Shown here piece after piece: positions 8,121 through 56,940 of a DNA stretch of 64,000 nucleotides (its first letter is position 1; each line of letters starts with the position of its first letter). The stretch is from the NCBI GenBank assembly GCA_037130365.1, contig JBAXTE010000003.1, positions 15,458 to 79,457 of the forward strand, read 5' to 3'. The DNA is from Bacteroidota bacterium. GTDB lineage: Bacteria > Bacteroidota > Bacteroidia > Bacteroidales > WCHB1-69. The notes beneath the pieces were generated by a model. That model did no database searches, was not told where the DNA came from, and worked only from the letters and a program-made list of their open reading frames with translations. Position numbers and translations under genes: made by a program.

Positions 8121-8121
8121 T

Positions 8122-9414: not shown

Positions 9415-9484
9415 TGGATACCTAGCAATTTAGTGATACTAGATATTGAATTTTACACGATGCATAGTTGTTAGAAAAAAAAAT

Positions 9485-9667: not shown

Positions 9668-9767
9668 AAGAATAATACATATAAAAAATAAATAACTGAA
9701 TTACAGATGTGTGTATGCAAATATTGAAAATTTATCGAACAATAATGGAAAAAATAAAAATAAATTC

Positions 9768-33049: not shown

Positions 33050-34147
33050 TTATTGATAAAACTCTATGATTGTATTACAAACTTTTTCAATCTGTTCGTC
33101 CGTAATTTCGGCATACATAGGCAACGATAGGATTTTAGATTGATTTGCATATGAAATTGGGAAATCTTTAGGTGCATAATTAAATTTCTTATAACATTCC
33201 GCAAAAGGCAAAGCGGTTTTATAGTGCATGCTTGTTTGAATCTCTTTTTGTTGAAGAAATTGTTGTAATTCGTCTCTGCGATTTGCTTGAATCACATATA
33301 AATGAAAAACAGAAGTTGTATTTGGTCGAAGTTTTGGCGTGACGATTTCCTCACAATTTGAAAGTAGTAAATTATACTTCATAGCAGCGTCAAATCGCAT
33401 TTTATTCCACTCACTTATATATTTTAACTTAACCGACAAAATTGCAGCTTGGATGCCATCAAGTCTACTATTAATGCCTTCTATTTGGTGAATATTTTTT
33501 TGAAGAGATCCATGATTACAATACATTCGAATTTGATTTGCTAAATCATTATCATTTGTTACAATTGCACCGCCGTCACCATAAGCTCCTAAATTTTTTC
33601 CAGGGTAAAAGCTATACGTAGCTATATCTCCAAATGTGCCTGTGTAATTATCTCCAAATTTAGAAAAATGAGATTGAGCACAATCTTCAACCAGGAAAAG
33701 GTTATGTTTTTTGCAGATTTTTTGTATGGTATCAATTTCAACAGCTTGTCCGTACAAATGCACCGGAATTATAGCTTTAGTATTTGAGGTAATCTTAGAT
33801 TCAATTTGCTTAACATCAATTCCGTAGAAATCATCATGATCCACGAAGATCGGAGTGGCTCCACAATGAGATATTGCTTCAGATGTTGCAATAAATGTAT
33901 TTGCTGCTGTAATTACTTCATCTCCCTGTTTTATTCCCAATATTTTTAAACTAATACTCAGAGCATCAGTTCCATTGCCCACTCCGATGCAATTTTTAAT
34001 ATTTAGTTTTTTTGCAAATAAGGATTCAAATTCACTCACAAAACTACCTTGTACAAATGCATTTTGTTGAATTACTTTAGTGATGATATTGTCTATTTCG
34101 ATTTGAATTTGTTCGTATTGCTTTGATAAATCAATAAATGGAATCAT
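33050..34147 (-). CDS. DegT/DnrJ/EryC1 PLP sugar aminotransferase (WbpE-like by context)
   Basis: MIPFIDLSKQYEQI, GNGTDALSISL, GDEVITAANTFIATSEA, and FYPGKNLGAYGDGGAI (catalytic Lys). Confidence 0.9.
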   Translation of the reverse strand: MIPFIDLSKQYEQIQIEIDNIITKVIQQNAFVQGSFVSEFESLFAKKLNIKNCIGVGNGTDALSISLKILGIKQGDEVITAANTFIATSEAISHCGATPIFVDHDDFYGIDVKQIESKITSNTKAIIPVHLYGQAVEIDTIQKICKKHNLFLVEDCAQSHFSKFGDNYTGTFGDIATYSFYPGKNLGAYGDGGAIVTNDNDLANQIRMYCNHGSLQKNIHQIEGINSRLDGIQAAILSVKLKYISEWNKMRFDAAMKYNLLLSNCEEIVTPKLRPNTTSVFHLYVIQANRRDELQQFLQQKEIQTSMHYKTALPFAECYKKFNYAPKDFPISYANQSKILSLPMYAEITDEQIEKVCNTIIEFYQ

Positions 34148-34180
34148 TTGTTTTTTTTGTCAAATTTCCGATTTTTTTGA

Positions 34181-34188
34181 TACATTTG
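34181..34188 (+). promoter_or_regulatory. Candidate -7 box TAnnTTTG (tacatttg)
   Basis: 48 nt upstream of the ATG at 34236, in a divergent intergenic region. Confidence 0.35.
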
Positions 34189-34235
34189 CTAATATTTCAA
34201 ACTATTTATAAAACAAGAACTTCATTTTTACAATT

Positions 34236-35237
34236 ATGATGAATATTGGATTAGTTGGATACGGATATTGGGGACCAAATATTGCCCGAAACATTATTTA
34301 TAACAGCGGTTTTAAATTAGCTTGTATTTGCGATCACGATCAAAATCGTTTGGAGCTTGCACATAAACATTATCCATTTATACCCAAACTTTCGAATATT
34401 GATGACCTAATTTCAAACCCTGAAATTGATTGTATTGTAATAGCAACAAACCCTACTTCTCATTACACTATTGCACTAAATGCGTTAAAGAATCATAAAC
34501 ATGTTTTGGTCGAAAAACCACTTTCTACTTCTTTATCTGAAATAAATTCGCTTGAACAAATTGCAAATGAGCAAGACCTAACTTTAATGGTAGATCATAC
34601 ATTTCTTTACAATGGAGTCGTTCAAGAGATGAAGTCACTTATTGATAATCACGAAATTGGCAATATAAAGTATATTGATACCACACGAATTAATTTGGGA
34701 ATCTTTCAAAACGATGTGAATGTATTATGGGACTTAGCTACTCACGATTTATCTATCGTAAATTATCTCCTACAGAAAATGCCAAAAAGTATAATTGCCA
34801 CAGGAAAATGTCATATTAAAGCTGGAATTCAAAATATTGCATACTTAAACCTGATGTACGACGACGACACAATAGTTCACGTTCACAGTTCGTGGATGTC
34901 GCCAGTTAAAATTCGACTAATGTTGATTGGGGGTGATAAAAAAATGATGGTTTATAATGATATTGAACCTACCGAAAAACTAAAAGTTTACGACACCGGT
35001 TTGAGCTTTGACAGCAATGATAAAGATCAAATTTTAGTTGATTATAGAGTTGGAGATGTAAATATTCCAAAATATAGTACGAAAGAGCCGTTAGCATCGA
35101 TGATTCAGGATTTTGAAAAATCAATTGTTCAAAAGACTAAGCCTATTTCGGGGATAGAATCTGCAAAACAAATTGTGAAAATTCTATCGGCTGCTCAAAC
35201 ATCATTGGATATGAATGGTAAAGAAATTTTGATCTAA
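34236..35237 (+). CDS. Gfo/Idh/MocA sugar-nucleotide dehydrogenase (WbpB-like by context)
   Basis: IGLVGYGYWGPNIARN and VEKPL motifs. Divergent from the DegT aminotransferase. Confidence 0.8.
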   Translation: MMNIGLVGYGYWGPNIARNIIYNSGFKLACICDHDQNRLELAHKHYPFIPKLSNIDDLISNPEIDCIVIATNPTSHYTIALNALKNHKHVLVEKPLSTSLSEINSLEQIANEQDLTLMVDHTFLYNGVVQEMKSLIDNHEIGNIKYIDTTRINLGIFQNDVNVLWDLATHDLSIVNYLLQKMPKSIIATGKCHIKAGIQNIAYLNLMYDDDTIVHVHSSWMSPVKIRLMLIGGDKKMMVYNDIEPTEKLKVYDTGLSFDSNDKDQILVDYRVGDVNIPKYSTKEPLASMIQDFEKSIVQKTKPISGIESAKQIVKILSAAQTSLDMNGKEILI

Positions 35238-36001
35238 TGAATTTATCAACACAGTCTTGGTCTATTATTATTTTTGCGTTTAACGAAGAAAATTCGATTC
35301 AAAAAGTGATTGAAGAGAGTCTAAAGGTATTAGAGAAAATTGCCCCTTTCCAAAATGAATTAATTATTGTAGATGATGGTAGTACAGATCATACTGTTAA
35401 AATAATTGAAGATTCTATTCGCTCTGCAAAAAATGCAAAACTTGTTGTTCATCATAAGAATAAAGGAATTGGTGAAGCACTTATGACTGGCTATAAATTG
35501 GCGAAATTTGAAAATATCTGTGCAATTCCTGCCGATGGACAATTTGATATTAAGGAGCTTCTCCCCTATTCGAATATTGCAGAGCACACAGTTATTTCAT
35601 TTTACAGAGTGGTGAAAACTCGTTATTCAATTTATAGAAAGGTGTTGAGTTTTGGCAACAAAATTTTTAATCGATATTTTTTGAGTATATATATCAAAGA
35701 CGTAAACTGGGTGAAAATTTACAAAAAGCTTTTTTTTGATGAAATAAACCCTGTCTTAACAAGTTCTCTTGTCGAAAGTGAAATTTGCGCTAAAATGGTT
35801 CAAAATAACTATAAAATAATTGAAATAGAATCTAAATACAATGCCCGCCAAGGTGGAATTTCCAAAGGATCTTCACCAAAAACAATAATGAGAGCTGTTT
35901 TGGAATTATTTAAACTTTTTATTGTTATCAGATTTAATTACAAAAAGCATAACAAAAAACAACAATTGAATTCTAAGGAAAGTGTTGCAGATTCCAATTA
36001 A
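35237..36001 (+). CDS. Glycosyltransferase family 2 (polyprenyl-phosphate sugar synthase-like)
   Basis: IIIFAFNEENSI...ELIIVDDGSTDHT and a later PADGQ motif. Confidence 0.8.
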   Translation: MNLSTQSWSIIIFAFNEENSIQKVIEESLKVLEKIAPFQNELIIVDDGSTDHTVKIIEDSIRSAKNAKLVVHHKNKGIGEALMTGYKLAKFENICAIPADGQFDIKELLPYSNIAEHTVISFYRVVKTRYSIYRKVLSFGNKIFNRYFLSIYIKDVNWVKIYKKLFFDEINPVLTSSLVESEICAKMVQNNYKIIEIESKYNARQGGISKGSSPKTIMRAVLELFKLFIVIRFNYKKHNKKQQLNSKESVADSN

Positions 36002-36037: not shown

Positions 36038-37687
36038 TTAAGAATAATCTGGGTTTTTGGTATTCCGTTTCGTCAACAAAAAGTTCCCAATTACTAAAGC
36101 ATCTAAGCCACTTCTGTAAAAACTAGCAATTGCATCTGAAGGCGATGCCACAATGGGCTCATTATTCGTATTAAAACTAGTATTCACGGAAACTGGATGT
36201 CCGGTGAGTTTTTTTAATTCGATTAAAAATTCATAGTAAATTGGGTTATTGTTTTTGGAAACGGTTTGAATTCTAGCAGTTCCGTCAGCATGAACAACTC
36301 CTGGAATAACAGCTTTCATCTCTTCCTTTACATCAAAAGTGATGTTCATAAAGGGAGAAATCGGAGCCTTGCCTATAAAATAGTTACTTGATTCTTCTTC
36401 TACCACCGATGGGCAAAAAGGACGGTACGATTCGCGGTACTTAATTTTTGCATTAATTACGTTTTTTACATCTGGCATCGCAGGATTTGCCAAAATACTT
36501 CTGGCACCCAATGCACGAGGACCAAACTCCATTCTCCCTTGAAACCAACCAATAATCTTATTTTGGGATACCAGTTCGGCTGCTGTTTTAGACGGATTCT
36601 TAATTTCTAAGTAATCCACGCCAATATCATCGAGTGTTTTTTTTATCTCTTCATTTGTGAATTCCATACCCAATAAAGCAGATGTTATAGGCTCAATTTT
36701 AAATCCGTTTTTAGAAGCTACGTACATAGCAGCACCCATGGAAATTCCTGCATCGCTAGAAGCAGGTTGAACATAAATATCGTCAATAAAATCAAGATTC
36801 ATCACTTTTTGATTTACCAAACAGTTTAGCGCAACACCTCCGGCAAAACAAATTTTTCGGATTCCTGTTTCTCGATAAAAATAATGAACCATTTCTATAA
36901 TAGTATTTTCTAGTTGAGCTTGAGTTGAAGCAGCAACATCTTTAAATCGTTGATCAAATGGTTCGTGTTTAAGTCGTTTGGAGCCAAATTCTTGCAAGAG
37001 TAAATCGCTAAAAGCCATTTCTTGACGTGTTGGCTGCGACTCACCCTTAGGAATGCTTTTCATGTATTTTTCATTTAACAACAACTCTCCATTGTCAAAA
37101 TTCAAAATATGAGACATATCGTACTTGTTTCTATTGCCATAAGCAGATAAACCCATTAACTTATACTCATCACTATCTCTACGAAATCCACAAAACTGAG
37201 TAAAAAGTGAGTAGTATATTCCAAGGCTATTCGGACGATAATATCTTTTAAACAGTTCCATCGAATTGCCTTTTCCTACTGACAGTTGTGTAGAAACACT
37301 ATCACCTGAGGCGTCAATGGATATTACCATCGCTTGATTAAATCCAGATGCATAAAAAGCACTTGATGAATGAGAATCATGATGATGAACAAATTCTAGT
37401 TTCGGGCAAAAGCCAAAAGTGTATAAAAAATAATTAGTCAACTTTTGGGCATATTCATCTCCCCAAGTTGAACCGTGAGATGCCACAATATCAATGTCTC
37501 TGATGGAAATATTTGCTTGTTTTAAACATTCCTCTATTGCAAGTTCGGGTAATTGACCGGGCGAAAATTTAATTCTATTTAGTCGCTCTTCCTCAATTGC
37601 AAACAGTACTTTTCCGTCTTTCATCAGTGTAGCCGAAATATCTTGATACCCGATACGAACACCTCCATTAACTCCTAATATATACAT
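36038..37687 (-). CDS. NodU/CmcH-family carbamoyltransferase (second copy)
   Basis: YILGVNGG, EEERLNRIK, HHHDSHSSSAF, GGVALNCLVN, and VNTSFNTNNEPIVASPSDA. Confidence 0.9.
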   Translation of the reverse strand: MYILGVNGGVRIGYQDISATLMKDGKVLFAIEEERLNRIKFSPGQLPELAIEECLKQANISIRDIDIVASHGSTWGDEYAQKLTNYFLYTFGFCPKLEFVHHHDSHSSSAFYASGFNQAMVISIDASGDSVSTQLSVGKGNSMELFKRYYRPNSLGIYYSLFTQFCGFRRDSDEYKLMGLSAYGNRNKYDMSHILNFDNGELLLNEKYMKSIPKGESQPTRQEMAFSDLLLQEFGSKRLKHEPFDQRFKDVAASTQAQLENTIIEMVHYFYRETGIRKICFAGGVALNCLVNQKVMNLDFIDDIYVQPASSDAGISMGAAMYVASKNGFKIEPITSALLGMEFTNEEIKKTLDDIGVDYLEIKNPSKTAAELVSQNKIIGWFQGRMEFGPRALGARSILANPAMPDVKNVINAKIKYRESYRPFCPSVVEEESSNYFIGKAPISPFMNITFDVKEEMKAVIPGVVHADGTARIQTVSKNNNPIYYEFLIELKKLTGHPVSVNTSFNTNNEPIVASPSDAIASFYRSGLDALVIGNFLLTKRNTKNPDYS

Positions 37688-37740: not shown

Positions 37741-38931
37741 TTATCCGCAGTTAAAATATTTATCATACGTTATTTTTGGCAGCAAATTTAAACGGGATAA
37801 AAACTTTATTGGATATTTCATGGCTCTAATATAAAAATAGCCAGTTTTATAATCTTTAAATGTTTTTGGTGGCAATGCTAAATACGAGTCAAATTCTGCA
37901 CGACTAATGCCTAAGCGCTTAATACAAAGGTCGATAATTTTTGGATCTTCGATAGAATATAAGCCATGGGCACGATTTAAGGCTTTTTCTCGATCGAGTT
38001 GACCAGAGCGAACCAAGGCAGAATCACTATTCATATTCATATCAATATTAAACTTAACACGATGAACATATTTAATTAAACTGTGATATAAATCATCAAA
38101 ATAATGTGCCCCTGGATAAACCCAGTCAAGTTCTTTTATGATTATTTCTTCGGCATCTTTTCTAATATAGTCATGATAGTACATCGGAGTAATTGTCTTA
38201 ATTCCCTTAATCACGGTATAATAAAAAAGCTCCTTTAAACCTAAATTAAACCCTGGATCATTAGCTGTCCAAGGGCGAAGTGGAATAGAGCTAAATTGAT
38301 TATGAACATTTCTTAAATAATCACCATCAAAAAACGACCAGGACAATGGTTTTACTCCTTCGGTTCTAAACGATTGACCAATTAATATGAACTTAATATT
38401 TTCCTTATGGGCAACTCCAAATAATGATGATGCTATTCCGATATCTGTTCCCATATTTAATTCAGGAACGGATGCTTTTAAAAAATCAATTTTTAAAGCT
38501 TTTGCTTCTCTCCAATCCGAAGTAATTGTTCGTAAATCAACACCCAGCGTTTTTACCGCTTTAATCATGTTTTCGCCAGCAACTGGATTATCAAATCCAT
38601 CATTAAAATGAACTGCTAAAGGACGAAGTCCCCATTTTTTTACTACTAAATATAGCAAATAGCAACTATCTCTACCCCCACTTACTCCAACTACACAATC
38701 GTATTTTTTGTTTTTGCCTTTACGTTTCATTTTACGAACAAACTCATCCTTCATTGCCGCACCTTTGTAGCCATTTGGAAAAGATTTTTCTAATTTATCA
38801 TGAAGGTGGCAAAAGTTACAAACATCATCCGAGTCAAATTCTATACCCGGAACAGTGCTATCCTGAACGCATCTAGAACATTGCTTATATGTTATTGATC
38901 TTGAAATTCCGTTTACTATCACAAAGCTCAT
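37741..38931 (-). CDS. N-acetyl-sugar amidotransferase (WbpG/PseA-type PP-loop ATP pyrophosphatase with Zn-ribbon)
   Basis: CSRCVQDSTVPGIEFDSDDVCNFCH, and the PP-loop VVGVSGGRDSCY. Confidence 0.85.
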   Translation of the reverse strand: MSFVIVNGISRSITYKQCSRCVQDSTVPGIEFDSDDVCNFCHLHDKLEKSFPNGYKGAAMKDEFVRKMKRKGKNKKYDCVVGVSGGRDSCYLLYLVVKKWGLRPLAVHFNDGFDNPVAGENMIKAVKTLGVDLRTITSDWREAKALKIDFLKASVPELNMGTDIGIASSLFGVAHKENIKFILIGQSFRTEGVKPLSWSFFDGDYLRNVHNQFSSIPLRPWTANDPGFNLGLKELFYYTVIKGIKTITPMYYHDYIRKDAEEIIIKELDWVYPGAHYFDDLYHSLIKYVHRVKFNIDMNMNSDSALVRSGQLDREKALNRAHGLYSIEDPKIIDLCIKRLGISRAEFDSYLALPPKTFKDYKTGYFYIRAMKYPIKFLSRLNLLPKITYDKYFNCG

Positions 38932-39241
38932 AATCTCTGAATTAATTCAACAATGAGTTAGCAAAGATATGAAACTTTGACTTAGTATTTGTGATATTTT
39001 AGAGTCGCTGAATGTCAATTCTTTTCCTTAATATTTATTTGAGATTTTATAAGTTCAATGGTTATATTCATTAACGACAGGTCGAGTGTCTCGATATAAT
39101 CAACGAGCACTTTATCACTCATCGGAAATAGATTATCTAGGACAAGTTCTTGCTCGTTTAATGTAAAATGATTTAATATTAAGTTTAGCTTTTGATTTCT
39201 GATTTTTATAATTGGGGTTCACAACTTGTTTTTATCTAATT

Positions 39242-40066
39242 TTAATGTTTTGCAGTATTAAATCGTTCACTAATTTGAGTTCCTTTTTCTTCGTTTTCGG
39301 GAACTTCTGTTTCGAACATCACAATGTCGCCTGCAAATTCATTCATCAATCCCTGAGCAATAACCACATTTTTGTTGACTGCTAATGAGCAACCTACCAT
39401 CTTTTTGCCTTCGTATGGACCGCCAACAATGTAACCGACACTTGTTGTGCTGCAAAAAATGATGTTGTATAATTCTGCAATTTCCGAAAGAGGTTTAATC
39501 CATTTGTCATTATAGGGATCTTGTTCTTCTGTTATAGAATAATCAACAGTCCAAGATGATGGAGACAAAATAATTTGTGCACCCATTTTCGCTAAAGTAT
39601 GGGCAATTGACAGACTGTTATAATAGTTATCAGCACAAATATTTACGCCAATCTTCCCAAATGGAGTATCAACAACATTCAACGTTGTTCCGACATCGTA
39701 ATAATCGTGTTCAACAACCAACAGATTTATTTTGCTGTACTTAATTATAATATTTCCTTCATTATTAATCAGTAGAGCGGTGTTAAATCTCCTATTCTCT
39801 CGTTTTTCGGTTAGACCAACACAAATAAAGATATTATTGGTTCGGGCCATTTCACAGAATATATCGCTATATTTCCCAGGAATTGGTTCGCACTCAACCT
39901 TAGCACTGGGATGTGTCCATGCAAAATCGATGGTTTCTGGTAATAGAACAACGTCGCAATTGGCTTCTGCAGCAAGATTTACTAATTTTTCAGCACGTTC
40001 AATATTCCGTTCTGGTTCTCCTCCTTCAACTAATAATTGTGCTAATGCAATTTTAATGGACTTCAT
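39242..40066 (-). CDS. Carbon-nitrogen hydrolase (nitrilase superfamily), second copy
   Basis: IALAQLLVEGGEP, LPETIDFAW (Glu), and VNICADNYY (Cys) catalytic regions. Confidence 0.85.
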   Translation of the reverse strand: MKSIKIALAQLLVEGGEPERNIERAEKLVNLAAEANCDVVLLPETIDFAWTHPSAKVECEPIPGKYSDIFCEMARTNNIFICVGLTEKRENRRFNTALLINNEGNIIIKYSKINLLVVEHDYYDVGTTLNVVDTPFGKIGVNICADNYYNSLSIAHTLAKMGAQIILSPSSWTVDYSITEEQDPYNDKWIKPLSEIAELYNIIFCSTTSVGYIVGGPYEGKKMVGCSLAVNKNVVIAQGLMNEFAGDIVMFETEVPENEEKGTQISERFNTAKH

Positions 40067-40527: not shown

Positions 40528-41679
40528 ATGAAAATTAAAGTCTTTTATCGTTCACTTTTGTTAATTTGTTCATTCATTTTTGGCTATTATTTTGTACTAA
40601 AAAACCAAGGTGTTCAAATTCAATCAAAGTATATGGGATTTGTATTAATTGGATTTTCGTATTCACTTTTTTTGACTATTATTCAAAGAATTAAGACTCA
40701 ACAACTTCGATTAAAGTTAACCATTTCTTCACTCCCGATTGTTTTAGGGCTTGTCTTTTTAGAGTTTTATGACTTAAAATATTATACGAACCATGAGTAT
40801 CAGATGAATCTTTATGTGCCACCGATAAATTTATATCATGTATATAGCCCAAATTCGATAACACAATGGACAAATGAAGAATATGGACATTATAGAAAAA
40901 TAAATTCTCAAGGATTGTGTGATGAAGAACAAACGATTAAAACTGATTCTCTAACCAATACAATTATTGGATTAGGCGATTCTTTTACAGAAGGATTAGG
41001 TGCTCATTCCGACTCCACTTGGTTAAAGTTTTTAGAAAGAAAAATATTATCCCAATCTCAAACAAAGTACCAATTTATTAATGCAGGTATTTCTGGAAGT
41101 GACCCAGTTTATGAATATATTTTATTACGTGATAAGCTACTAAAGTTCAAACCAAATACTGTTATTTTAGCCTTAGGATACGAGATTAATGAGATGATTA
41201 TTCGGGGAGGATTTGAACGTTTTCAAAATGATGGGACTATTAAATATCGAGATAAACCATTTTGGTATCCTTTATATAAAATATCTGGTGTTTTCAGATT
41301 ATTTGTTCGAATCTGCTTTGCAAACGAAATGCTTTTACCTGGAAATCAAGTAAAAATCGAAGAAAAAAAGGCAATTAATGAAATACAGTCGATTATACTT
41401 CTTTTTAAACAATTGGGAGAAAAAATGAATTTCAAATTAGTTTTAACAATATATCCTTTGTATAAAGAAACTATAAATAAAAAATATGATTATTGGACAG
41501 AAACGATAAAATTTGCTCAAAAAAACCAAATAATCACCGTTGACTTACTAAAGTTTTATATCGATTCCGTTCACATGAATAAAACAAATATTTCAAATTA
41601 CTATTGGCCTATAGATGGACACTATAATGCTAAAGGATATGAGAAAATGGCTGAAGGAATTTATCAATCAATAAAATAA
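40528..41679 (+). CDS. Membrane-anchored SGNH/GDSL hydrolase (paralog of the C-terminal part of 31272-33032)
   Basis: IIGLGDSFTEGLGAHSDSTWLKFLERK, FINAGISGSDPVYEY, and YYWPIDGHYNAKGY. Confidence 0.75.
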   Translation: MKIKVFYRSLLLICSFIFGYYFVLKNQGVQIQSKYMGFVLIGFSYSLFLTIIQRIKTQQLRLKLTISSLPIVLGLVFLEFYDLKYYTNHEYQMNLYVPPINLYHVYSPNSITQWTNEEYGHYRKINSQGLCDEEQTIKTDSLTNTIIGLGDSFTEGLGAHSDSTWLKFLERKILSQSQTKYQFINAGISGSDPVYEYILLRDKLLKFKPNTVILALGYEINEMIIRGGFERFQNDGTIKYRDKPFWYPLYKISGVFRLFVRICFANEMLLPGNQVKIEEKKAINEIQSIILLFKQLGEKMNFKLVLTIYPLYKETINKKYDYWTETIKFAQKNQIITVDLLKFYIDSVHMNKTNISNYYWPIDGHYNAKGYEKMAEGIYQSIK

Positions 41680-46005: not shown

Positions 46006-47118
46006 CTATTCTTTTTTAAACACCCCACCAAAATTCGTCATCCTTTGATAATTTTTAAAATTTTTGTAGGTTTCATTTTCCAGTTTTAACAATTCCTCAT
46101 CCGAAAGTTCATCAATAAAACAAGTTGGATCTTCGCCCATAATATCTCCATTGTGGTAATAAGCCATAACTCTACAGCCACCACAAGTGAAATTAAATTT
46201 GCATGAACCACATTTTCCTTTAAGCTCCGAGCGATTTACCACCGTTTTAAAGAGATTAGATTCAAACAAAATTTCACGCAAATCTTGCGTGTAAACATTT
46301 CCGCCCGATACATGGTCTAATAAAAGTGGACAAGGAGCGACTTCACCTTCCGCATTTATTCCATAAAATGAGCCCACCCAACAGCCTATAGAAGGGTTTG
46401 TTGGAACAATATTCGTATTATGATCTTGCCCTGAGTGTTTTAAATAATCGGTTTCATTTAGAAATAGAGGAACATAACTTACATATCCTCTAAAATATTT
46501 TAAAAGCGATGGATGAATTTTGTCTCTCATCGTCTCTTTGTCAATCATCAAATTTTTACAATCTGAATTTCTTGGCGAAAAAGGGATTCTATTGTATGGT
46601 AATTTTAATGAGTTTATATTAGAAATGGTAGCCTCAAAGCTATCAGAATTGAATTTCCCAACGGTAACACAAAGATTAATTGTGATGTTGTTTTTCTCCA
46701 ATAATTCGATTAATTCAAGGGTTTTCGAAATGTCAAAATCTCGAGTTTCAATGTTTTTATCATCAAAAGAATTCACCCCCAAAGAAATTAAAATATTATC
46801 TCCTAATGTGACTCTTAACTTATCAATAATTTCTTGATTCATCATTTTACCATTCGTAACAATCGATATTCTAAAGCCTATATCATTTGCTTCTTTAAGC
46901 AAAGTAAATGCATCTTTTCTCAGAAGAAACTCACCTCCCGAAAAATCTATCATTCTAGTCCCCAATTCCCAAGCTGGTTTAAAAATACGGTTTACAATAC
47001 TGAAAGTCGGAATATCTGTATACTTCTGTTTTACATTAGACTTAGTAGAGCAATATTGGCAATTTAAATTACAGTTGCGAGTAGCTTCAAAATATAGAGT
47101 GTGAAAAAGTGGTTGCAT
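46006..47118 (-). CDS. Radical SAM enzyme with C-terminal SPASM domain
   Basis: The CX3CX2C cluster is in ATRNCNLNCQYCS. The SPASM cysteines are CWVGSFYGINAEGEVAPC, CGSCKFNFTCGGC and DPTC. Start set at the ATG at 47118 (M21 of the track ORF), which has a minus-strand TAnnTTTG box 10 nt upstream. Confidence 0.85.
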   Translation of the reverse strand: MQPLFHTLYFEATRNCNLNCQYCSTKSNVKQKYTDIPTFSIVNRIFKPAWELGTRMIDFSGGEFLLRKDAFTLLKEANDIGFRISIVTNGKMMNQEIIDKLRVTLGDNILISLGVNSFDDKNIETRDFDISKTLELIELLEKNNITINLCVTVGKFNSDSFEATISNINSLKLPYNRIPFSPRNSDCKNLMIDKETMRDKIHPSLLKYFRGYVSYVPLFLNETDYLKHSGQDHNTNIVPTNPSIGCWVGSFYGINAEGEVAPCPLLLDHVSGGNVYTQDLREILFESNLFKTVVNRSELKGKCGSCKFNFTCGGCRVMAYYHNGDIMGEDPTCFIDELSDEELLKLENETYKNFKNYQRMTNFGGVFKKE

Positions 47119-47128
47119 CTTTTTTAAA

Positions 47129-47136
47129 CAAAGGTA
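47129..47136 (-). promoter_or_regulatory. Candidate -7 box TAnnTTTG (tacctttg on the minus strand) for the SPASM radical SAM gene
   Basis: Plus-strand caaaggta at 47129-47136, 10 nt upstream of the minus-strand ATG at 47118. Confidence 0.4.
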
Positions 47137-47167
47137 GAAAAAAGAAAGAAATCTTGCATTAATAATG

Positions 47168-47175
47168 TATATTTG
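47168..47175 (+). promoter_or_regulatory. Candidate -7 box TAnnTTTG (tatatttg) for the FAS-like operon
   Basis: 31 nt upstream of the ATG at 47206, back to back with the minus-strand box at 47129-47136. Confidence 0.4.
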
Positions 47176-47205
47176 CAACAGTCATTTCAAGATAATTTCG
47201 CATAA

Positions 47206-48009
47206 ATGAATTACAAAAATAACTTTTGGGCTTTTATTCTTGGTGGAACAGGTAGCTTTGGTTTAGCCACTGCAAAACTTTTAGCATCTAAAGGATTTAA
47301 TTTAATACTTGTTTATCGCGAAACAAAGGGAAATATTCAAAACCTTAATTCTGAGTTTGAGATATTGAAACAACAGTGTGATGTAATTCAGTTCAATTTA
47401 AACGCAAACGAACCCGAAAATCAAAATATTATCGTTGAAACATTACTTAAATATCCTGAAATAAAAAACAAAATATCTTTTTTGCTTCACGCCATTGCTG
47501 ATGGGAATCTCAGACCGTTATTTGCAAATAATGAGGATTCAATTGAAGAGCTAAACATAGAAGACTTTCACCATACAATTAAATCTATGGGAACAAGCTT
47601 GTATCTATGGACACAACTTTTATTTAAAAATGATTTTTTTGCAGAAAATTCTTCTGTTCTAGGGCTAACTAGTGAAGGTTCTACTCGGTTTTACAATAAT
47701 TATGCAGCGGTGGCATCTGCAAAGTCAGTAATGGAATCTAATATGCGATATATTGCAGTTGAATTAGCAAAATATGGTATTAGAGCAAATCTTTTAAATG
47801 TGGGCATTACTGATACCCCAGCGCTTAAGTCTTTTCCCGATTATAAATTATTTATTGATAGGGCAAAAGAGAGAAATCCAGCAAAGCGTCTCACAACTCC
47901 AGAGGATGTTGCAAAGGTAATTGCATTTATGGCTTCAGGTGATTCTCAATGGATAAATGGGACGATTATTACTGTTGATGGTGGAGAACAATTAATAAGT
48001 CTTTATTAA
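47206..48009 (+). CDS. FabL-like enoyl-[acyl-carrier-protein] reductase (SDR with Y-x6-K)
   Basis: LGGTGSFGLA glycine motif and YNNYAAVASAK (a Y-x6-K catalytic dyad as in FabI/FabL, not YxxxK). The C-terminal half (RYIAVELAKYGIRANLLNVG..TDTPALKSFP...NGTIITVDGGEQL) closely follows the FabL pattern as I recall it. Confidence 0.7.
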   Translation: MNYKNNFWAFILGGTGSFGLATAKLLASKGFNLILVYRETKGNIQNLNSEFEILKQQCDVIQFNLNANEPENQNIIVETLLKYPEIKNKISFLLHAIADGNLRPLFANNEDSIEELNIEDFHHTIKSMGTSLYLWTQLLFKNDFFAENSSVLGLTSEGSTRFYNNYAAVASAKSVMESNMRYIAVELAKYGIRANLLNVGITDTPALKSFPDYKLFIDRAKERNPAKRLTTPEDVAKVIAFMASGDSQWINGTIITVDGGEQLISLY

Positions 48010-48449
48010 TGGAAATATCCGATAAAATTATTCAAGCTTTGCCGTATGGTAATACTTTTCGTTTTGTAGATTCAATTGAACGAGTTGATGAGGATACCAT
48101 TATCGGCAACTATACTTATAAAGAAGATTTGCCATTTTACCATTCGCATTTTCAAGGAAATCCAATAGTCCCAGGTGTTATCATTATTGAGACTATGGGC
48201 CAAATCGGAATGGTTTGTCACCTAATTTATCTATCAAATGATTATTCATTATCCACTCTGCCATTACTTTCAAATTTGGAGGCAGAGTTTTATTGTAACG
48301 CAAATTACAATGAACCTATTAAAGTAATTGGACGAAAAATTTATTTTAGGCGAAACATTCTAAAATCATCGATTGAAATGAGAAAGCTAGACGATACTCT
48401 CATCGCCACACTAACTGCATATATATCCAAAATGCCAAAATGCCAATGA
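48009..48449 (+). CDS. FabZ/FabA-like 3-hydroxyacyl-ACP dehydratase (hot-dog fold)
   Basis: The motif YHSHFQGNPIVPGVIIIETMGQ matches the FabZ active-site region (HF...P..PGV...E...Q). Confidence 0.85.
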   Translation: MEISDKIIQALPYGNTFRFVDSIERVDEDTIIGNYTYKEDLPFYHSHFQGNPIVPGVIIIETMGQIGMVCHLIYLSNDYSLSTLPLLSNLEAEFYCNANYNEPIKVIGRKIYFRRNILKSSIEMRKLDDTLIATLTAYISKMPKCQ

Positions 48450-49723
48450 ATAAACGAGTAGTAATCACAGGGATAGGAGTTGTAGCTCCGGGAAGTGTTG
48501 GTGTTGTTGAATTTAATAACCAATTAATAAATGCAATATCGGGTATAAAAAATATTCCTGATATGAAAAACTTTAATTTTAATTGTCAGGTTGGTGGTAT
48601 TTGTGAAATTGATAGTGAAGCAATAAAAAAACAATTTCCTCAATTTCAAATACCAATCATTAGTCGAAGTACATTATTGCTAGCTCTTTCATGCAAAGAG
48701 GCACTTTTAGACTCAGGTTTAATCACTTTAAATCATGATTATTCCCAGTATTTGAATTATGACCTAATAATTGGATCAACTATAAGTTCAGCTGATATTT
48801 GGGGGGAATATATTATACCTATGGTTGATAAACAAAAGCATCTCCGATTGGGTAGTAGTGCATTCGAACAAATAATTAATTCAAGTCCTACAGCAATGAT
48901 TGCAGAGATTTATGGATTAACTGGCAGAACAATATCTACTTCATTGGCATGTGCAAGTAGTACTGAAGCGATAATTGAAGCTGCAAATAAAATTAAATAT
49001 GAAAATAAGGAAATCGTAATTGCTGGTGGAGTTGAACCGTATTCTAAATATTATTGGGGTACTATGGACGCAATGAAAATAATTAATCCAAACCATAATA
49101 ATCAACCAGATAAAGCTATTAGACCTATGAGTGAAAGTGCAAATGGATTTGTGCCTTCTGAAGGTAGCGGAATAATTATTCTTGAAGAATATAATCATGC
49201 AAAAAAGCGAAATGCAAAAATTTATGGTGAAATAATAGGAAGCCATATTAATTGCGGAGGAGGAAGAAATGGGGGAAGCATGACGGCTTCTAATAAAGAT
49301 ATGCTTAGAAAATGTATTTTTGAAACTATCCAAAACTCAAATATTAGCGCAAGTGAGATTGATTTAATATCTGGCCATTTAACTGCTACAAAAGCTGATT
49401 CTGCCGAAGTTAATGCATGGAATATTGGGCTTAATTTTCCGAAAAAATTTCCGTATATCAATTCAACGAAATCATTAATTGGTCACACATTAGGTGCTTG
49501 TGGAGTAATTGAAGTGATAGCTATAATTTTGCAAATGAAAGGGAAGTACATTCATGCATCCATAAATTGTGAGGATATTCATCCTTTAATTTCGGAAAAA
49601 ATATCTCAAAAATGTGTGCCTCAAAAAACAATTCACAATATTGATATACAGTATGCTATAAAGGCAAATTTTGGATTTGGAGATGTAAATGCCAGCTTAA
49701 TAATAAAAAACTTAAATGAATAA
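48440..49723 (+). CDS. Beta-ketoacyl-ACP synthase (FabF/FabB-like KS) 1
   Basis: RVVITGIGVV. Active-site Cys in LACASS, His in SGHLTATKAD and STKSLIGHTLGACG. C-terminal FGFGDVNASLI. Confidence 0.9.
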   Translation: MPMNKRVVITGIGVVAPGSVGVVEFNNQLINAISGIKNIPDMKNFNFNCQVGGICEIDSEAIKKQFPQFQIPIISRSTLLLALSCKEALLDSGLITLNHDYSQYLNYDLIIGSTISSADIWGEYIIPMVDKQKHLRLGSSAFEQIINSSPTAMIAEIYGLTGRTISTSLACASSTEAIIEAANKIKYENKEIVIAGGVEPYSKYYWGTMDAMKIINPNHNNQPDKAIRPMSESANGFVPSEGSGIIILEEYNHAKKRNAKIYGEIIGSHINCGGGRNGGSMTASNKDMLRKCIFETIQNSNISASEIDLISGHLTATKADSAEVNAWNIGLNFPKKFPYINSTKSLIGHTLGACGVIEVIAIILQMKGKYIHASINCEDIHPLISEKISQKCVPQKTIHNIDIQYAIKANFGFGDVNASLIIKNLNE

Positions 49724-50993
49724 TAGGGTTGTTATTACGGGAATCGGAGTCATCTCTCCTAATGGAATTGGTAAAAATTCCTTTGTAAACTCTATAAGGG
49801 GGGGGGTATCAGGAATAAGAAATATTCCTGATATGGAAAAACATAATTTACTATGTCATATCGGAGGTGTTCCCGAAATAAACTGGAATGATTATAATTC
49901 ATTTTTTGCAGAAAATGAATTGCTAGATGCCGATATTTCAATAAAGTATGGAGTCCTTTCAGGCATAGAAGCATGGAGGGATGCTGGATTAGAAATTAAT
50001 GACACCAAAAACATTGACACTCTTACTGACTGCGGGGCTATCATTGGAACTACTTTTGGTGGAATAGAGGTTTTTATTAGAAAAATATTACCCCTTGTTG
50101 ACACTGGAAACTTTAGAAAATTAGGAAGTCAAATTATGGAGCATTTTATGCCAAGTGGAACATCAGCGGCACTTTCTAAAATATTAGCATTATCAAATAT
50201 TAATTCATCAAATTCTTCAGCTTGCTCTACAGGACTAGAAGCAATATATTTTTCATATCAACACATCAAAAACAATAAAGCGAAACTTATGATGACTGGT
50301 GGTACTGATCTATATTCGTCATATTGCTGGGCAGGTTTCGACTCTATGAGAGTTTTAAATCGATCATCTAACAATAACCCATCTATTGGGAGCAGACCAA
50401 TGAGTGCCACTGCAAGTGGATTTGTGCCAGCAGCTGGCTCAAGTGTGTTAATACTTGAAGAATTAGAACATGCCATTGAACGAAACGCACCGATATATGC
50501 AGAAATTGTTGGAGCAAGTGTTAATTCTGGTGGCCAACGAAACGGTGGATCTATGACCTTCCCAAACCCTAAGCGTGTAATTGATTGCATTCAGGATTCA
50601 ATTCACCAAGCCAATATTAAAGGAGATGATATTAACCTAATTTGTGGACATTTAACTGGGACCAAGGCCGATTCAATTGAAATTAATAATTGGGTTGCAG
50701 CTTTGAATCTTAGTAATAACATTCCATATATTAATTCTTTAAAGTCGATGACAGGTCATTTAATCGGGGCTGCTGGTGCATTAGAAACTGCAGCTGCTGT
50801 TTTACAACTCCATCACGATTTTGTCCATCCATCTATTAATAGTGAAGATCTTCACCCTGAAATTGCCAAGCTTATTCCTCGCGAAAAAATCCCGCTTAAA
50901 ATTATTGAAAATGCTGGACTAAAATATATCGCAAAAGCAAGCTTTGGATTTGGTGATGTGAATTCCTGTATAATTTTGAAAAAATATGAGTAA
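49716..50993 (+). CDS. Beta-ketoacyl-ACP synthase (FabF/FabB-like KS) 2
   Basis: RVVITGIGVI. Cys retained in SACSTG, His in CGHLTGTKAD and LKSMTGHLIGAAG. It is therefore not a Cys-less chain-length-factor type. Confidence 0.9.
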   Translation: MNNRVVITGIGVISPNGIGKNSFVNSIRGGVSGIRNIPDMEKHNLLCHIGGVPEINWNDYNSFFAENELLDADISIKYGVLSGIEAWRDAGLEINDTKNIDTLTDCGAIIGTTFGGIEVFIRKILPLVDTGNFRKLGSQIMEHFMPSGTSAALSKILALSNINSSNSSACSTGLEAIYFSYQHIKNNKAKLMMTGGTDLYSSYCWAGFDSMRVLNRSSNNNPSIGSRPMSATASGFVPAAGSSVLILEELEHAIERNAPIYAEIVGASVNSGGQRNGGSMTFPNPKRVIDCIQDSIHQANIKGDDINLICGHLTGTKADSIEINNWVAALNLSNNIPYINSLKSMTGHLIGAAGALETAAAVLQLHHDFVHPSINSEDLHPEIAKLIPREKIPLKIIENAGLKYIAKASFGFGDVNSCIILKKYE

Positions 50994-51021
50994 TTTTGCT
51001 CTATCATAAATACCAAAAATT

Positions 51022-51264
51022 ATGGACGAAAATAAGAATAAAGTTATCGAGATTCTTAAAAAGTATACTTTTAATGAATCTGTTTGGGATAACTATACTG
51101 AAAACTCAAAAATCATTGTTGATTTAAAAATCAATTCTGCCCGAATTGTTGATATAATTCTAGATGTTGAGGATGAATATGGGATCGTTATTGACGATTA
51201 TTTGCTCGAAAAACTAATTACGATTAAAGATATATTGGATATTATTGAACAAAAAAGAAAATAA
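51022..51264 (+). CDS. Acyl carrier protein (phosphopantetheine-binding)
   Basis: 80 aa and acidic. DLKINSARIVDIILDVEDEYG corresponds to the DLG.DS....E helix-II region, with the Ser as the attachment site. Confidence 0.7.
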   Translation: MDENKNKVIEILKKYTFNESVWDNYTENSKIIVDLKINSARIVDIILDVEDEYGIVIDDYLLEKLITIKDILDIIEQKRK

Positions 51265-51341
51265 CGAATATTTTAAAATCGTTGTTTTACTGCATTTAAA
51301 CTACATTTTTTGTTGTCTTTTGTCTGCTAATATTAATTCGA

Positions 51342-52304
51342 ATGGGAACACCTATTTTAAGTATCGGAATCATCTCTTATAATCAAGCTGAATTTATCGA
51401 AAAAGCGATTAATTCGGTTATGGCACAGCAAACCCAATATCCTTTTGAGTTGATTATTTGTGACGATGCATCAGAAGACAATACCGACGACATTGTCAAT
51501 GGATTATTGCGAGGGGTTAGCTTTTCCACACAATATGTCAGAAACAAAACTAGAAAAGGGCCACTTTTAAACGGTAAAAACTTCATAAAACATGCTTCTG
51601 GAAAGTATCTTTGCTGGATGGATGCCGATGATTATTGGTGCTATGAAAATAAAATTCAAAAACAAATTGACTTTTTAGAATCCAATTTAGATTATAATGG
51701 TTGCTTTCATGATGCCAAAATAATCTCGGATATTGAGATAAACGAAGATCTTTCTGAGCAATTGAAGGAACAAACACATGGTAGATGGAAAAGTTATTCG
51801 CAGTTTAATACGTATCAATCCGACTTTTATCCTTGGGATGTATTACAGCGCAAAATTATTCCAACGGCTTCATTAATGATTCGGAATAGGGATTTAAACC
51901 ATTTCCTCGAAAAGCATTTAGATGTAAATTTATCTGTTAGTTGGGCATTACATTTAGAGCTAATAAAAAATAGTAAGTTTAAGTATTTCAACGAATTATG
52001 GTCGGTTTATTTTGATCATGCCAAAGGCTTTTCAAAGAGTATCGACCTAGTTACTTTTAAACTAAATAATATTCAAATTTTATTCAAATTATTAGATGAT
52101 GCGTATTATAGTGCCTTAAAAAAAGATGTTTATCGAGCCATTGCTAACGAGTACTACTTTTTACTTCATAGCGCTGAAGCACAAAAACGAAGTACTAAAG
52201 AGTATCGAGATTATTGCAAGGCCTATACAAAATGGGCTGATAAGGCTACCAAAGAAGATGTTGAAAGATTTAAAACCACTCATAAACTTAAAAACCAACA
52301 GTAA
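51342..52304 (+). CDS. Glycosyltransferase family 2
   Basis: LSIGIISYNQAEFIEKAINSV...ELIICDDASEDNT and a later DADD motif. Confidence 0.85.
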   Translation: MGTPILSIGIISYNQAEFIEKAINSVMAQQTQYPFELIICDDASEDNTDDIVNGLLRGVSFSTQYVRNKTRKGPLLNGKNFIKHASGKYLCWMDADDYWCYENKIQKQIDFLESNLDYNGCFHDAKIISDIEINEDLSEQLKEQTHGRWKSYSQFNTYQSDFYPWDVLQRKIIPTASLMIRNRDLNHFLEKHLDVNLSVSWALHLELIKNSKFKYFNELWSVYFDHAKGFSKSIDLVTFKLNNIQILFKLLDDAYYSALKKDVYRAIANEYYFLLHSAEAQKRSTKEYRDYCKAYTKWADKATKEDVERFKTTHKLKNQQ

Positions 52305-54092
52305 ATGTGTGGAATCCTCGGGAAAGTAAGTTTTAATGCACCGATTGATCAAGATGAGTTTGTTGCTCAGCGAGATACAATGACTTCTAGAGGCCCGAAT
52401 CAAGAAGGGTTGTATTTTAATTCCGCCAAAAAAATTGCTCTTGGATATCGCCGATTAAGTATCAATGATTTAAGCGAATTAGGCAATCAGCCTATTTCTA
52501 ACGAGGACTCAACAATCTTTTTAATATGTAATGGCGAAATATATAATTCACCCAAGTTAAAGGAAGAACTTATTAAATTAGGTCACCATTTTAAAAGTCG
52601 CTCAGATGCAGAAGTTATCATTCATGGATACGAAGAGTGGGGAACAGAAATTCTAAAAAGAGTTGAAGGCATGTTTGCTTTTGGAATATGGGATTCAAAA
52701 AAAGATGAACTAATCGTTGCCAGAGACAGATTTGGCATAAAACCACTTTATTTCGAAAGTAATGATGAAAGTTTCACCTTTGCATCTTCACTTAACGCTA
52801 TTATTACGGCAAAAAATCATCACAAAAAGTTAGATTTTTCATCCATTTGCGATTATCTAACGTATCGTTATGTACCTTCGCCAAAAAGTATTTATCAAGG
52901 AATCTGCAAACTCGAGCCCGCTCAATTTTTGGTATTAACTGCTCAAAAAAAGGTTCAAATTCAATATTATTGGGCAATAGAGTACAAACCTATAAAAATG
53001 TCACCCGCTGAGGTTCAGAAACAATTTGAGCATTTATTACGACAATCGGTACGCAAACATTTAATGAGCGACGTGCCCGTAGGTTCCTTTTTGAGCAGTG
53101 GCTACGATTCATCTACGTTGGCTTTATTGATGACCGAAGAAAATTATCAGCCTCAAACATTTAGTTTAGGGTTTTCTAATTGGGAAGAAAGTGAACATTT
53201 GATTGCGCAAAAAACGGCCGATATATTAAAACTCAATAATCATTCGTTGATCATTGATTTTAAGGATTTTATACCCGAAAACTTTATCGATGCATACGAT
53301 GAACCTATTGCTGATATTTCTACAATACCCACTTTTTGCATCAGTAATTTTGCGTCAAAGAAAGTTAAAACAGTTTTTTCGGGCGAAGGAGCAGACGAAC
53401 TTTTAGGCGGGTATGATTGGCATCGTAAAATAATGCAAAAGTACAATCAACGATCAATTTCTGATAGGTTATTTAGAGATTTTAATCCTACAGCAATCGA
53501 AATTTATAAGGAGTATATGGCGATGGGCAAATTTGACCGTGATGAATTACTAAAACTCTTTTCCCCAGAGCACCATTATCAAATTCCCGAAAATCCGTAT
53601 TGGTTTTTTGAGCAAAGTTTTAGAAAAGATTTGCCTTTATTAAAGGCGATTCAATATATGGATATCAGGGGCTTTATGGGGGAGTTAGTACTTAGTAAAA
53701 TTGACCGCTCAAGTATGGCACATTCCCTAGAAGTTAGAGTCCCATACTTAGACTATGACTTATTTGATTTTTTGTTTAATCTTGAGCCAGATGCTTATTT
53801 CTCGTTAGTGGAACAAAAAAAACTTCTTGTAAACCTTCTCAAACCCAAACTGCCACATGTTGTAAATCGCAAAAAACAAGGATTTGTAGGACCTAACGAA
53901 TATTACAATCGAGTAGAATTATATAAGGATATTCTTAAAAACTCTAAATTAGAAGATCTCGGTATTCTAAATAAGAAGTATTTATTACAATTATTTTCCA
54001 ACAATGATATGTGGAGAATTTGGAAATTAGTACTTTTGGAGTTATGGCTACAACATAATTTTGGCTCAAACAGTTCGTTAAAATCAAACTAA
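52305..54092 (+). CDS. asnB: Asparagine synthase (glutamine-hydrolysing) family amidotransferase
   Basis: N-terminal nucleophile MCGI, GNQP, the RGPD-like RGPNQEG, and a PP-loop-like FLSSGYDSS in the synthetase domain. Confidence 0.85.
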   Translation: MCGILGKVSFNAPIDQDEFVAQRDTMTSRGPNQEGLYFNSAKKIALGYRRLSINDLSELGNQPISNEDSTIFLICNGEIYNSPKLKEELIKLGHHFKSRSDAEVIIHGYEEWGTEILKRVEGMFAFGIWDSKKDELIVARDRFGIKPLYFESNDESFTFASSLNAIITAKNHHKKLDFSSICDYLTYRYVPSPKSIYQGICKLEPAQFLVLTAQKKVQIQYYWAIEYKPIKMSPAEVQKQFEHLLRQSVRKHLMSDVPVGSFLSSGYDSSTLALLMTEENYQPQTFSLGFSNWEESEHLIAQKTADILKLNNHSLIIDFKDFIPENFIDAYDEPIADISTIPTFCISNFASKKVKTVFSGEGADELLGGYDWHRKIMQKYNQRSISDRLFRDFNPTAIEIYKEYMAMGKFDRDELLKLFSPEHHYQIPENPYWFFEQSFRKDLPLLKAIQYMDIRGFMGELVLSKIDRSSMAHSLEVRVPYLDYDLFDFLFNLEPDAYFSLVEQKKLLVNLLKPKLPHVVNRKKQGFVGPNEYYNRVELYKDILKNSKLEDLGILNKKYLLQLFSNNDMWRIWKLVLLELWLQHNFGSNSSLKSN

Positions 54093-54138
54093 CTATGCTC
54101 AAGAAGAAACTTTGTACATCTTTATTAAGACTTGGAAT

Positions 54139-56902: not shown

Positions 56903-56940
56903 ATAGATTTTTTTACTTAAGATATTAATAATCAAAAATT

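Follow-up and report, generated by a model that had tools for sequence, protein, structure and literature searches.

In a 64,000-nucleotide stretch of DNA from a Bacteroidota bacterium (contig JBAXTE010000003.1, positions 15,458 to 79,457; the whole stretch is called the window below), a gene for a hydrolase of the nitrilase superfamily (carbon-nitrogen hydrolase #1, CN hydrolase #1) precedes a gene for a WbuX/WbpG-type N-acetyl sugar amidotransferase (NASAT #1). Judged from gene content and gene order, the two proteins are reasonably likely to be the two subunits of one glutamine-dependent (or other amide-dependent) sugar amidotransferase. The elements of the pair are as follows.

39242-40066, minus strand: CN hydrolase #1, 274 amino acids, nitrilase superfamily (PF00795)
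38932-39241, minus strand: spacer of 310 bp between the two genes; the hydrolase gene lies upstream on the same strand
37741-38931, minus strand: NASAT #1, 396 amino acids, WbuX/WbpG-type PP-loop ATP pyrophosphatase with a Zn-type tetracysteine motif

A preliminary description of this DNA had placed the hydrolase gene upstream of the amidotransferase gene on the same strand, and this arrangement was borne out, with the 310-bp spacer between them. The identity of both genes and the integrity of their catalytic motifs can be read directly from the sequence. NASAT #1 gave no Pfam match and scored 216.0 bits with the NCBIfam model TIGR03573 (WbuX; cutoff 203.2). Its PP-loop SGGRDS occupies residues 84-89 and its tetracysteine motif reads C18xxC21...C38xxC41; a PP-loop SGGxDS together with CxxC...CxxC defines the NASAT family (PMC10607449). 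All 30 of 30 orthologs keep the four Cys residues as well as S84, G85, G86 and D88, and S89 is kept in 29 of them. The AlphaFold2 (AF2) model of NASAT #1 (pLDDT 93.5) best matched the NASAT of Legionella (LpNASAT, 8WEX, chain 8wex_B; E 1.6e-14, TM 0.61) in a Foldseek search, followed by TtuA and NH3-dependent NAD synthetases.

CN hydrolase #1 matched PF00795 with an E value of 3e-32 (112.4 bits, cutoff 23.2) and carries the motifs LPETID (Glu44) and NICADNYY (Cys144). The triad Glu44/Lys112/Cys144 is invariant in two sets of orthologs (n=32 and n=30). Retention of the Glu and Cys regions had been noted beforehand for both hydrolases of the window, and was indeed seen in CN hydrolase #1 and, as FPEMTL and ICYDLRFPE, in CN hydrolase #2, which is treated further below. 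Since every match of CN hydrolase #1 to the NCBIfam models was far under its cutoff, the protein is placed in no named family. Its own family is tight: the best 120 matches listed share 62-96% identity with it, are 264-309 amino acids long, all consist of a single domain, and bear in their sources only the names 'predicted amidohydrolase' or 'carbon-nitrogen hydrolase family protein'.

Conservation of the gene pair and distribution of HisH and HisF2

NASAT enzymes of this type are expected to have HisH and HisF2 as partners. The window had been described as devoid of both, and this was confirmed by two approaches: Pfam found no class-I (HisH-type) glutaminase and no His_biosynth domain in any of the 49 window open reading frames (ORFs) of at least 150 amino acids, and a tblastn search of the window with 54 HisH/HisF2 proteins gave a best E value of 0.02. 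The sole glutamine-amidotransferase domains in these ORFs are GATase_6/7 of the AsnB-type protein encoded at 52305-54092. The possibility that HisH/HisF lie just outside was checked on contigs of the same organism, and none was found in about 7 kb past the right end or 1.7 kb past the left end.

An ortholog of CN hydrolase #1 (59-67% identity) directly adjoins an ortholog of NASAT #1 (57-73% identity) in six of eight genomes (L008, L009, L010, L011, L013, L014). These belong to three metagenome-assembled genomes (MAGs) of Chitinophagales/Chitinophaga, one unclassified Bacteroidetes, one Lishizhenia and one MAG labelled Omnitrophota. The two orthologs are 3.3 kb apart in Acidiluteibacter ferrifornacis (L005) and about 36 kb apart on one contig of a Chitinophagales MAG (L012/L103).

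Metagenome contigs were scanned with a NASAT alignment, yielding 80 loci with NASATs that are 72% to 38% identical to NASAT #1, and the ORFs of these loci were clustered. Thirty loci hold a NASAT at least 51% identical to NASAT #1; two of them, at a contig edge, were left out, which gives 28 informative loci. A same-strand ortholog of CN hydrolase #1 (53-67% identity) is present at 27 of the 28. It is directly adjacent to the NASAT gene at 25 loci, with the order hydrolase then NASAT at 24 of these 25. Estimated intergenic gaps at the adjacent pairs range from -14 to +179 bp, and at 14 pairs the gap is at most 1 bp or the genes overlap, a coupling that would be typical of subunits made in a fixed ratio. 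Furthermore, the distance matrices of hydrolases and NASATs correlate (r = 0.63, a value reached by 0 of 2000 permutations), which is consistent with inheritance as a unit. Because it is conserved at other loci, the adjacency of the two genes is, on this comparison, far beyond chance.

A different picture emerged at the 49 metagenome loci with a NASAT at most 46% identical to NASAT #1. None of them has a hydrolase of the CN hydrolase #1 type (0/49), and 33 have HisH and/or AglZ/HisF2/WbuZ next to or near the NASAT gene; these partners were identified as HisH by TIGR01855 (241 bits) and as AglZ/HisF2/WbuZ by NF038364 (338 bits). Conversely, HisH/HisF2 was found at none of the 28 informative loci of the NASAT #1 clade, and no metagenome locus has both the hydrolase and HisH/HisF2. 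Linkage and mutual exclusion are thus direct observations; the contrast of hydrolase presence between the clades gives a Fisher p of 6e-20, a value that overstates independence, as the loci are related. Co-occurrence of hydrolase and WbpG/PseA-type genes where HisH/HisF are missing, which had been suggested as a check, therefore holds over these loci (27/28 vs 0/49). Replacement of the ammonia-supplying subunits by the hydrolase would be expected to produce just such a picture, a conserved, coupled pair that is exclusive with HisH/HisF2. The distribution suggests that a deep NASAT clade has probably swapped the classical HisH/HisF2 delivery of ammonia for one nitrilase-type protein. For the classical system, co-immunoprecipitation/pull-down data support an interaction of HisF2 with WbpG, which agrees with HisH2/HisF2 delivering the ammonia (PMC11445079).

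Linkage could also arise by genomic hitch-hiking of a hydrolase that has an unrelated housekeeping role. For a gene of a glycan locus the family is unusually conserved (62-96% identity across orders, among the matches listed), and the ortholog stands beside housekeeping genes in some relatives. Nevertheless, we regard hitch-hiking as very improbable: the adjacency persists down to 53% identity, across many contexts and with coupled reading frames, and hydrolase and NASAT co-occur even when they are unlinked.

Some loci deserve mention in their own right. In L003 (474-1289) and L101 (8001-9194), relatives with 83-84% identical proteins, the hydrolase gene and the NASAT-carbamoyltransferase genes appear on either side of the same housekeeping block of about 10 kb (cytochrome bd, UvrC, GldH, OmpA, RNase H), an arrangement deduced across two different assemblies. 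There the pair genes therefore seem to lie in the core chromosome and not in a variable O-antigen island. At six loci (L057, L069, L075, L079, L080, L086) the carbamoyltransferase gene is followed by HisF2-like, NASAT and GFO genes in this order, and the available flank shows no HisH, which suggests yet another partner arrangement. A protein of about 358 amino acids without NCBIfam match (cluster c6) is a regular fourth conserved gene after NASAT-HisH-HisF2 (L054, L063, L066, L070, L077, L082, L084, L087, L091 and others).

Proposed ammonia delivery and competing explanations

The AF2 model of CN hydrolase #1 (pLDDT 83, pTM 0.88) has the fold of solved nitrilase-superfamily structures. Foldseek returned 2w1v, 3ivz and 6ypa with TM 0.78-0.79 and E values of about 1e-19 to 1e-20. 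The top neighbour is mouse Nit2, an omega-amidase (2w1v), followed by Pyrococcus amidases, including one whose structure contains bound glutaramide; a formamidase and the N-carbamoylputrescine amidohydrolase MtCPA are nearly equal to Nit2. These closest structures are of enzymes that cleave small or glutamine-like amides; Nit2 and the Pyrococcus enzymes attack the terminal amide of glutamine-like five-carbon acids, which is suggestive, not decisive, for CN hydrolase #1.

Several genes around the pair bear on its possible function.

36038-37687, minus strand: NodU/CmcH-type carbamoyltransferase (PF16861, 226 bits; PF02543, 158 bits)
35237-36001, plus strand: GT2 (Pfam), recurrent neighbour of the pair
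34236-35237, plus strand: GFO/WbpB-like oxidoreductase (Pfam), recurrent neighbour of the pair
33050-34147, minus strand: DegT aminotransferase (Pfam), recurrent neighbour of the pair
40528-41679, plus strand: GDSL/SGNH hydrolase (PF13472), divergent from CN hydrolase #1

Orthologs of the DegT/GFO/GT2 set adjoin the pair in L014, L016, L017, L020, L031, L036, L039-L041 and L103, and this set (33050-36001) probably provides an amino-sugar pathway context. Carbamoyltransferase orthologs (46-50% identity) follow NASAT #1 orthologs at about half of the loci. In the clade with at least 60% identity, the adjacency of NASAT #1 and carbamoyltransferase is kept as well as that of hydrolase and NASAT, sometimes with overlapping stop and start codons; loci with this adjacency are L008, L009, L016, L017, L019, L020, L101 and L103. 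Orthologs of the GDSL/SGNH hydrolase recur in L001, L009, L014, L016 and L017.

For the pair we infer ammonia production, glutamine as the donor, a physical complex and the nature of the sugar substrate. The Glu-Lys-Cys site of CN hydrolase #1 would cleave the glutamine amide and thereby set ammonia free. NASAT #1, with ATP bound at its PP-loop, would adenylate the carbonyl oxygen of the N-acetyl group of a sugar, and displacement of AMP by ammonia would then yield an acetamidino group. The likeliest sugar is a 3-acetamido uronic sugar or another amino sugar that the WbpB/WbpE-like enzymes encoded nearby would make. One nitrilase-type protein would in this way take the role of both HisH (the glutaminase) and HisF2/WbuZ, a non-orthologous displacement in this NASAT clade. 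A bolder extension is that NASAT, with the linked carbamoyltransferase, could amidate an N-carbamoyl group, giving a guanidino sugar.

De Ingeniis et al. (PMC3376133) place the nitrilase-like glutaminase of NAD synthetase in a separate class (class IV). A more specific form of our proposal, which we advance tentatively and give not quite an even chance, is that CN hydrolase #1 and NASAT form an obligate heteromer with an ammonia path between the subunits and constitute a second, independently evolved nitrilase-type (class IV) family, widespread in Bacteroidota and some other phyla, that replaces HisH/HisF2 in the synthesis of acetamidino sugars.

An alternative assigns CN hydrolase #1 to the sugar itself, as an N-deacylase or as an N-carbamoyl or amidine hydrolase, and lets NASAT use free ammonia. 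Indeed, N-carbamoyl hydrolases score alike against CN hydrolase #1 (aguB with E 9e-17, MtCPA in Foldseek), a carbamoyltransferase often adjoins the pair, and single-domain NadE enzymes use free ammonia (PMC3376133). Nevertheless, the conserved core consists of hydrolase and NASAT, the carbamoyltransferase being missing at about half of the loci, and the overlapping stop and start codons of the pair are typical of stoichiometric subunits. Furthermore, an enzyme acting on the sugar does not predict that CN hydrolase #1 is found exactly and only at loci without HisH/HisF2. We consider this alternative unlikely.

A number of results weigh against the proposed two-subunit amidotransferase. CN hydrolase #1 has no specific kinship to the glutaminase domains of NadE: NAD+ synthase models gave 52 bits (cutoff 479), NadE (5kha) ranked 24th in a PDB search with E 5.5e-6, with Pyrococcus enzymes at 6e-18, and no NadE was among the Foldseek top 50. 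The window protein has the second catalytic Glu (E119); in 9 of 30 orthologs another residue takes its place or the Glu is shifted. We identified no clade-specific docking feature in CN hydrolase #1, and no natural fusion of CN hydrolase and NASAT exists among its 150 best representatives. The pair is separated by 10-36 kb in some relatives, and one informative locus (L021) lacks a CN hydrolase #1 ortholog within 8 kb. The 310-bp spacer of the window is unusually long for the pair (-14 to +179 bp at other loci).

Since CN hydrolase #1 is no closer to NadE than to other branches, it must have been recruited independently if it acts in a NadE-like manner. The idea of a split NadE-like enzyme, put forward in the preliminary description, thus stands in part: a NadE-like way of working is plausible for the pair, and descent from NadE finds no support in the profile scores (52 vs 479 bits) or in Foldseek.

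The spacer was scanned for regulatory elements; no terminator-like site was found, and sigma-70-like sites were no commoner than in shuffled sequences. The element TATCTTTG at 38969-38962 on the minus strand precedes the start of NASAT #1 by 31-38 bp and resembles the Bacteroidetes -7 promoter box. A TATCTTTG-like match is expected by chance about once per 1.3 kb in this A+T-rich DNA, and the element is a weak candidate for a separate promoter in the spacer.

Several candidate features were rejected. Conserved C-terminal motifs of CN hydrolase #1 (SPSSWTV..., VGYIVGGPYEGKK), considered as a surface for docking of NASAT, are common to unlinked outgroup hydrolases with 31-39% identity. Among long matches considered as fusions of CN hydrolase and NASAT, P0378 and P0448 have N-termini that are not NASAT, and the remaining ones are tandem CN hydrolases or a fusion to RsmI. 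The nearest outgroup hydrolases, P0366 and P0374, are located on short contigs, and their sole neighbour gene matches no protein of the window. A third kind of glutaminase was sought at L021, where the neighbours were read as a LOG-like protein, an outer-membrane protein and an inserted Fic protein.

The second hydrolase, the second NASAT domain and the surrounding locus

The window as a whole is one very large surface-glycan locus with a G+C content of 30.9%, and the nearest homologues of its proteins are found in Bacteroidota genomes and MAGs. A second hydrolase gene of the nitrilase superfamily lies in an operon at its left end.

0.4-11.3 kb: legionaminic-acid-type operon (Pfam, NCBIfam), with DegT, PglD-like acetyltransferase, NeuB, 2-epimerase and CBS-nucleotidyltransferase; further genes are a second NeuB-like gene, cytidylyltransferase, GFO oxidoreductase, class-III aminotransferase, CN hydrolase and PtmA-like SDR
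7134-8120, plus strand: PtmF-like GFO oxidoreductase (Pfam/NCBIfam), part of a conserved block
8095-9414, plus strand: class-III aminotransferase (Pfam/NCBIfam), in the conserved block before CN hydrolase #2
9768-10568, plus strand: CN hydrolase #2, YafV/omega-amidase-like (PF00795, E 1.5e-35, 123.3 bits, cutoff 23.2)
10546-11325, plus strand: PtmA-like SDR (Pfam/NCBIfam), last gene of the conserved block 7134-11325
24271-25275, plus strand: NASAT domain #2, amino acids 530-864 of a GT4-NASAT fusion of 900 amino acids (22684-25386)

The program-made ORF of CN hydrolase #2 starts with GTG at 9711; because its homologues have about 260 amino acids and align from residue 20-22, ATG 9768 is the likely start. 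CN hydrolase #2 is no more than a distant relative of CN hydrolase #1 (about 22-29% identity over some 160 residues). Its best NCBIfam match was NF007757 (YafV-type amidohydrolase) with 143.3 bits, under the cutoff of 249, the closest PDB entry was 3p8k (E 1.5e-36), and the source names of its homologues include 'omega-amidase'.

The order GFO oxidoreductase/class-III aminotransferase/CN hydrolase/PtmA-like SDR recurs in L096-L098 inside legionaminic-acid operons, and the block of L098 (Sulfurimonas denitrificans) and of two other loci has shared stop/start codons. In L097 and L098 no NASAT gene is present within 9 kb of the block; in L096 a NASAT gene follows 5 kb downstream, and after it come its own HisH and HisF. 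At L097 (9001-10491) a natural fusion of 496 amino acids, P0244, joins a CN hydrolase #2 ortholog to a PtmA-like SDR within the legionaminic-acid operon.

CN hydrolase #2 had been proposed as the glutaminase of the NASAT domain in the fusion protein 22684-25386. Both genes are part of the same 64-kb locus, and NASAT domain #2 has no HisH/HisF here. On the other hand, hydrolase and domain are 13.7 kb apart, and a CN hydrolase #2-like gene occurs at 0 of the 49 NASAT loci of the HisH/HisF clade. Moreover, its orthologs are fixed in the aminotransferase-CN hydrolase-SDR block even where NASAT is missing nearby (L097, L098), the NASAT near the block of L096 has its own HisH and HisF, and a natural fusion ties the hydrolase to the SDR (P0244). 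This second pairing is scarcely credible. The broader claim that the hydrolases of the window generate ammonia for sugar amidotransferases is accordingly retained as a reading for the first pair, with its conserved linkage and HisH/HisF exclusion, and finds no support for the second, whose hydrolase belongs to a different pathway block.

CN hydrolase #2 is most simply read as an omega-amidase clearing the 2-oxoglutaramate that a glutamine-using class-III aminotransferase would form, an assignment that is independent of the role of CN hydrolase #1 and that we hold to be nearly, if not fully, an even prospect. Hydrolysis of 2-oxoglutaramate would pull the reversible transamination in the branch leading to the legionaminic-acid precursor. 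The YafV-type family match, the homologues named 'omega-amidase' and the retained order of aminotransferase, CN hydrolase and SDR with shared stop/start codons in L098 speak for this function; the score of 143.3 bits, below the NF007757 cutoff, speaks against it. In the window as in L096-L098, the gene adjoins that of the class-III aminotransferase, which is evidence of linkage only. For Nit2, references cited in PMC3223725 are given as establishing the coupling of omega-amidase to a glutamine-using transaminase.

NASAT domain #2 scored 290.1 bits with TIGR03573 (cutoff 203.2) and is 44-48% identical to NASATs that adjoin HisH/HisF2; by this similarity it is a member of the HisH/HisF2-associated clade. 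No HisH/HisF partner was found for it in the window or the known flanks, and its ammonia may come from a borrowed hydrolase #1, from housekeeping HisH/HisF or from the free pool. Similar GT-NASAT fusions in L063, L067, L082 and L084 adjoin HisH/HisF2.

In the legionaminic-acid operon the canonical NeuB gene (2136-3140) is accompanied by a divergent second NeuB-like synthase gene (5343-6371; PF03102, E 2e-43), which is kept at 78% identity in L097. The window also codes for flippase-type (Polysacc_synt) transporter and glycosyltransferase proteins, two carbamoyltransferases, WbpB/WbpE-like proteins, an AsnB-type amidotransferase, and radical-SAM and ketosynthase proteins. The region 46006-58311 comprises four radical-SAM genes (one of them for a protein with an N-terminal SPASM domain), two ketosynthase genes, an SDR gene and an AsnB-type asparagine synthase gene; on the contig of a close relative (L001) a FabA-like dehydratase gene lies between those for the SDR and a ketosynthase. 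This region may encode an unusual acyl or alkyl modification pathway.

Comparison with known systems

In a full-text literature search, NASAT, WbuX, PseA or acetamidino sugars were never mentioned together with a nitrilase or CN hydrolase, and the paper on the LpNASAT structure mentions neither glutamine nor HisH. Within the literature searched, we therefore regard the pairing of a nitrilase-type hydrolase with NASAT as undescribed. Nitrilase-type glutaminases have so far been described for NAD synthetase only (PMC3376133). The gene pair of the window probably represents a nitrilase-type ammonia-supplying subunit on a different PP-loop amidotransferase, where it would displace HisH/HisF2.

If this holds true, NASAT would be the second PP-loop enzyme family with a nitrilase-type glutaminase and a clean case of non-orthologous displacement. 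As amidotransferases are textbook examples of the making and channelling of ammonia, the pair would offer a new system for the study of ammonia delivery. A large conserved family now annotated no further than 'carbon-nitrogen hydrolase family protein' would receive a name and a role, and acetamidino or amidated sugars in the surface glycans of Bacteroidota could be predicted better. The expectation that WbpG/WbuX-type genes always come with hisH2/hisF2 would have to be corrected.

The closest parallel is the two-subunit NAD synthetase of Thermus thermophilus. TTC1538, the PP-loop NAD synthetase, and TTC1539, a stand-alone nitrilase-like glutaminase, are encoded in one operon (PMC3376133); the proteins form a tight complex of about 1:1 and use glutamine (PMC3376133). 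As in that two-gene operon, a Glu-Lys-Cys gene of the nitrilase superfamily stands here beside the gene for an ammonia-needing PP-loop ATP pyrophosphatase, and many bacteria and eukaryotes have the same combination of hydrolase and PP-loop enzyme in a single protein, the fused NadE. Unlike in the NadE systems, the proposed partner is a NASAT (TIGR03573, Zn tetracysteine, 8WEX fold), and CN hydrolase #1 stands no nearer to the glutaminase domains of NadE than to other branches, which implies independent recruitment.

CN hydrolase #2, a small CN hydrolase whose gene stands beside an aminotransferase gene, has its best functional analogue in the omega-amidase Nit2/YafV coupled to glutamine transaminases, although it falls under the YafV cutoff and is part of a nonulosonic-acid operon. 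CN hydrolase #1 differs from Nit2/YafV in being linked to a PP-loop enzyme and not to a transaminase, even though Nit2 is its top structural neighbour.

With WbpG-HisH2-HisF2 of Pseudomonas aeruginosa O5, WbuX-WbuY-WbuZ of Escherichia coli O145 and AglZ/HisF2, the pair of the window shares the amidotransferase family, the location in a glycan locus, the nearby WbpB/WbpE-like oxidoreductase and aminotransferase, the hexapeptide acetyltransferase, and a partner gene directly beside the NASAT gene. In contrast to these systems, HisH and HisF2 are missing both in the window and at the 28 informative loci, and a single CN hydrolase stands in their place.

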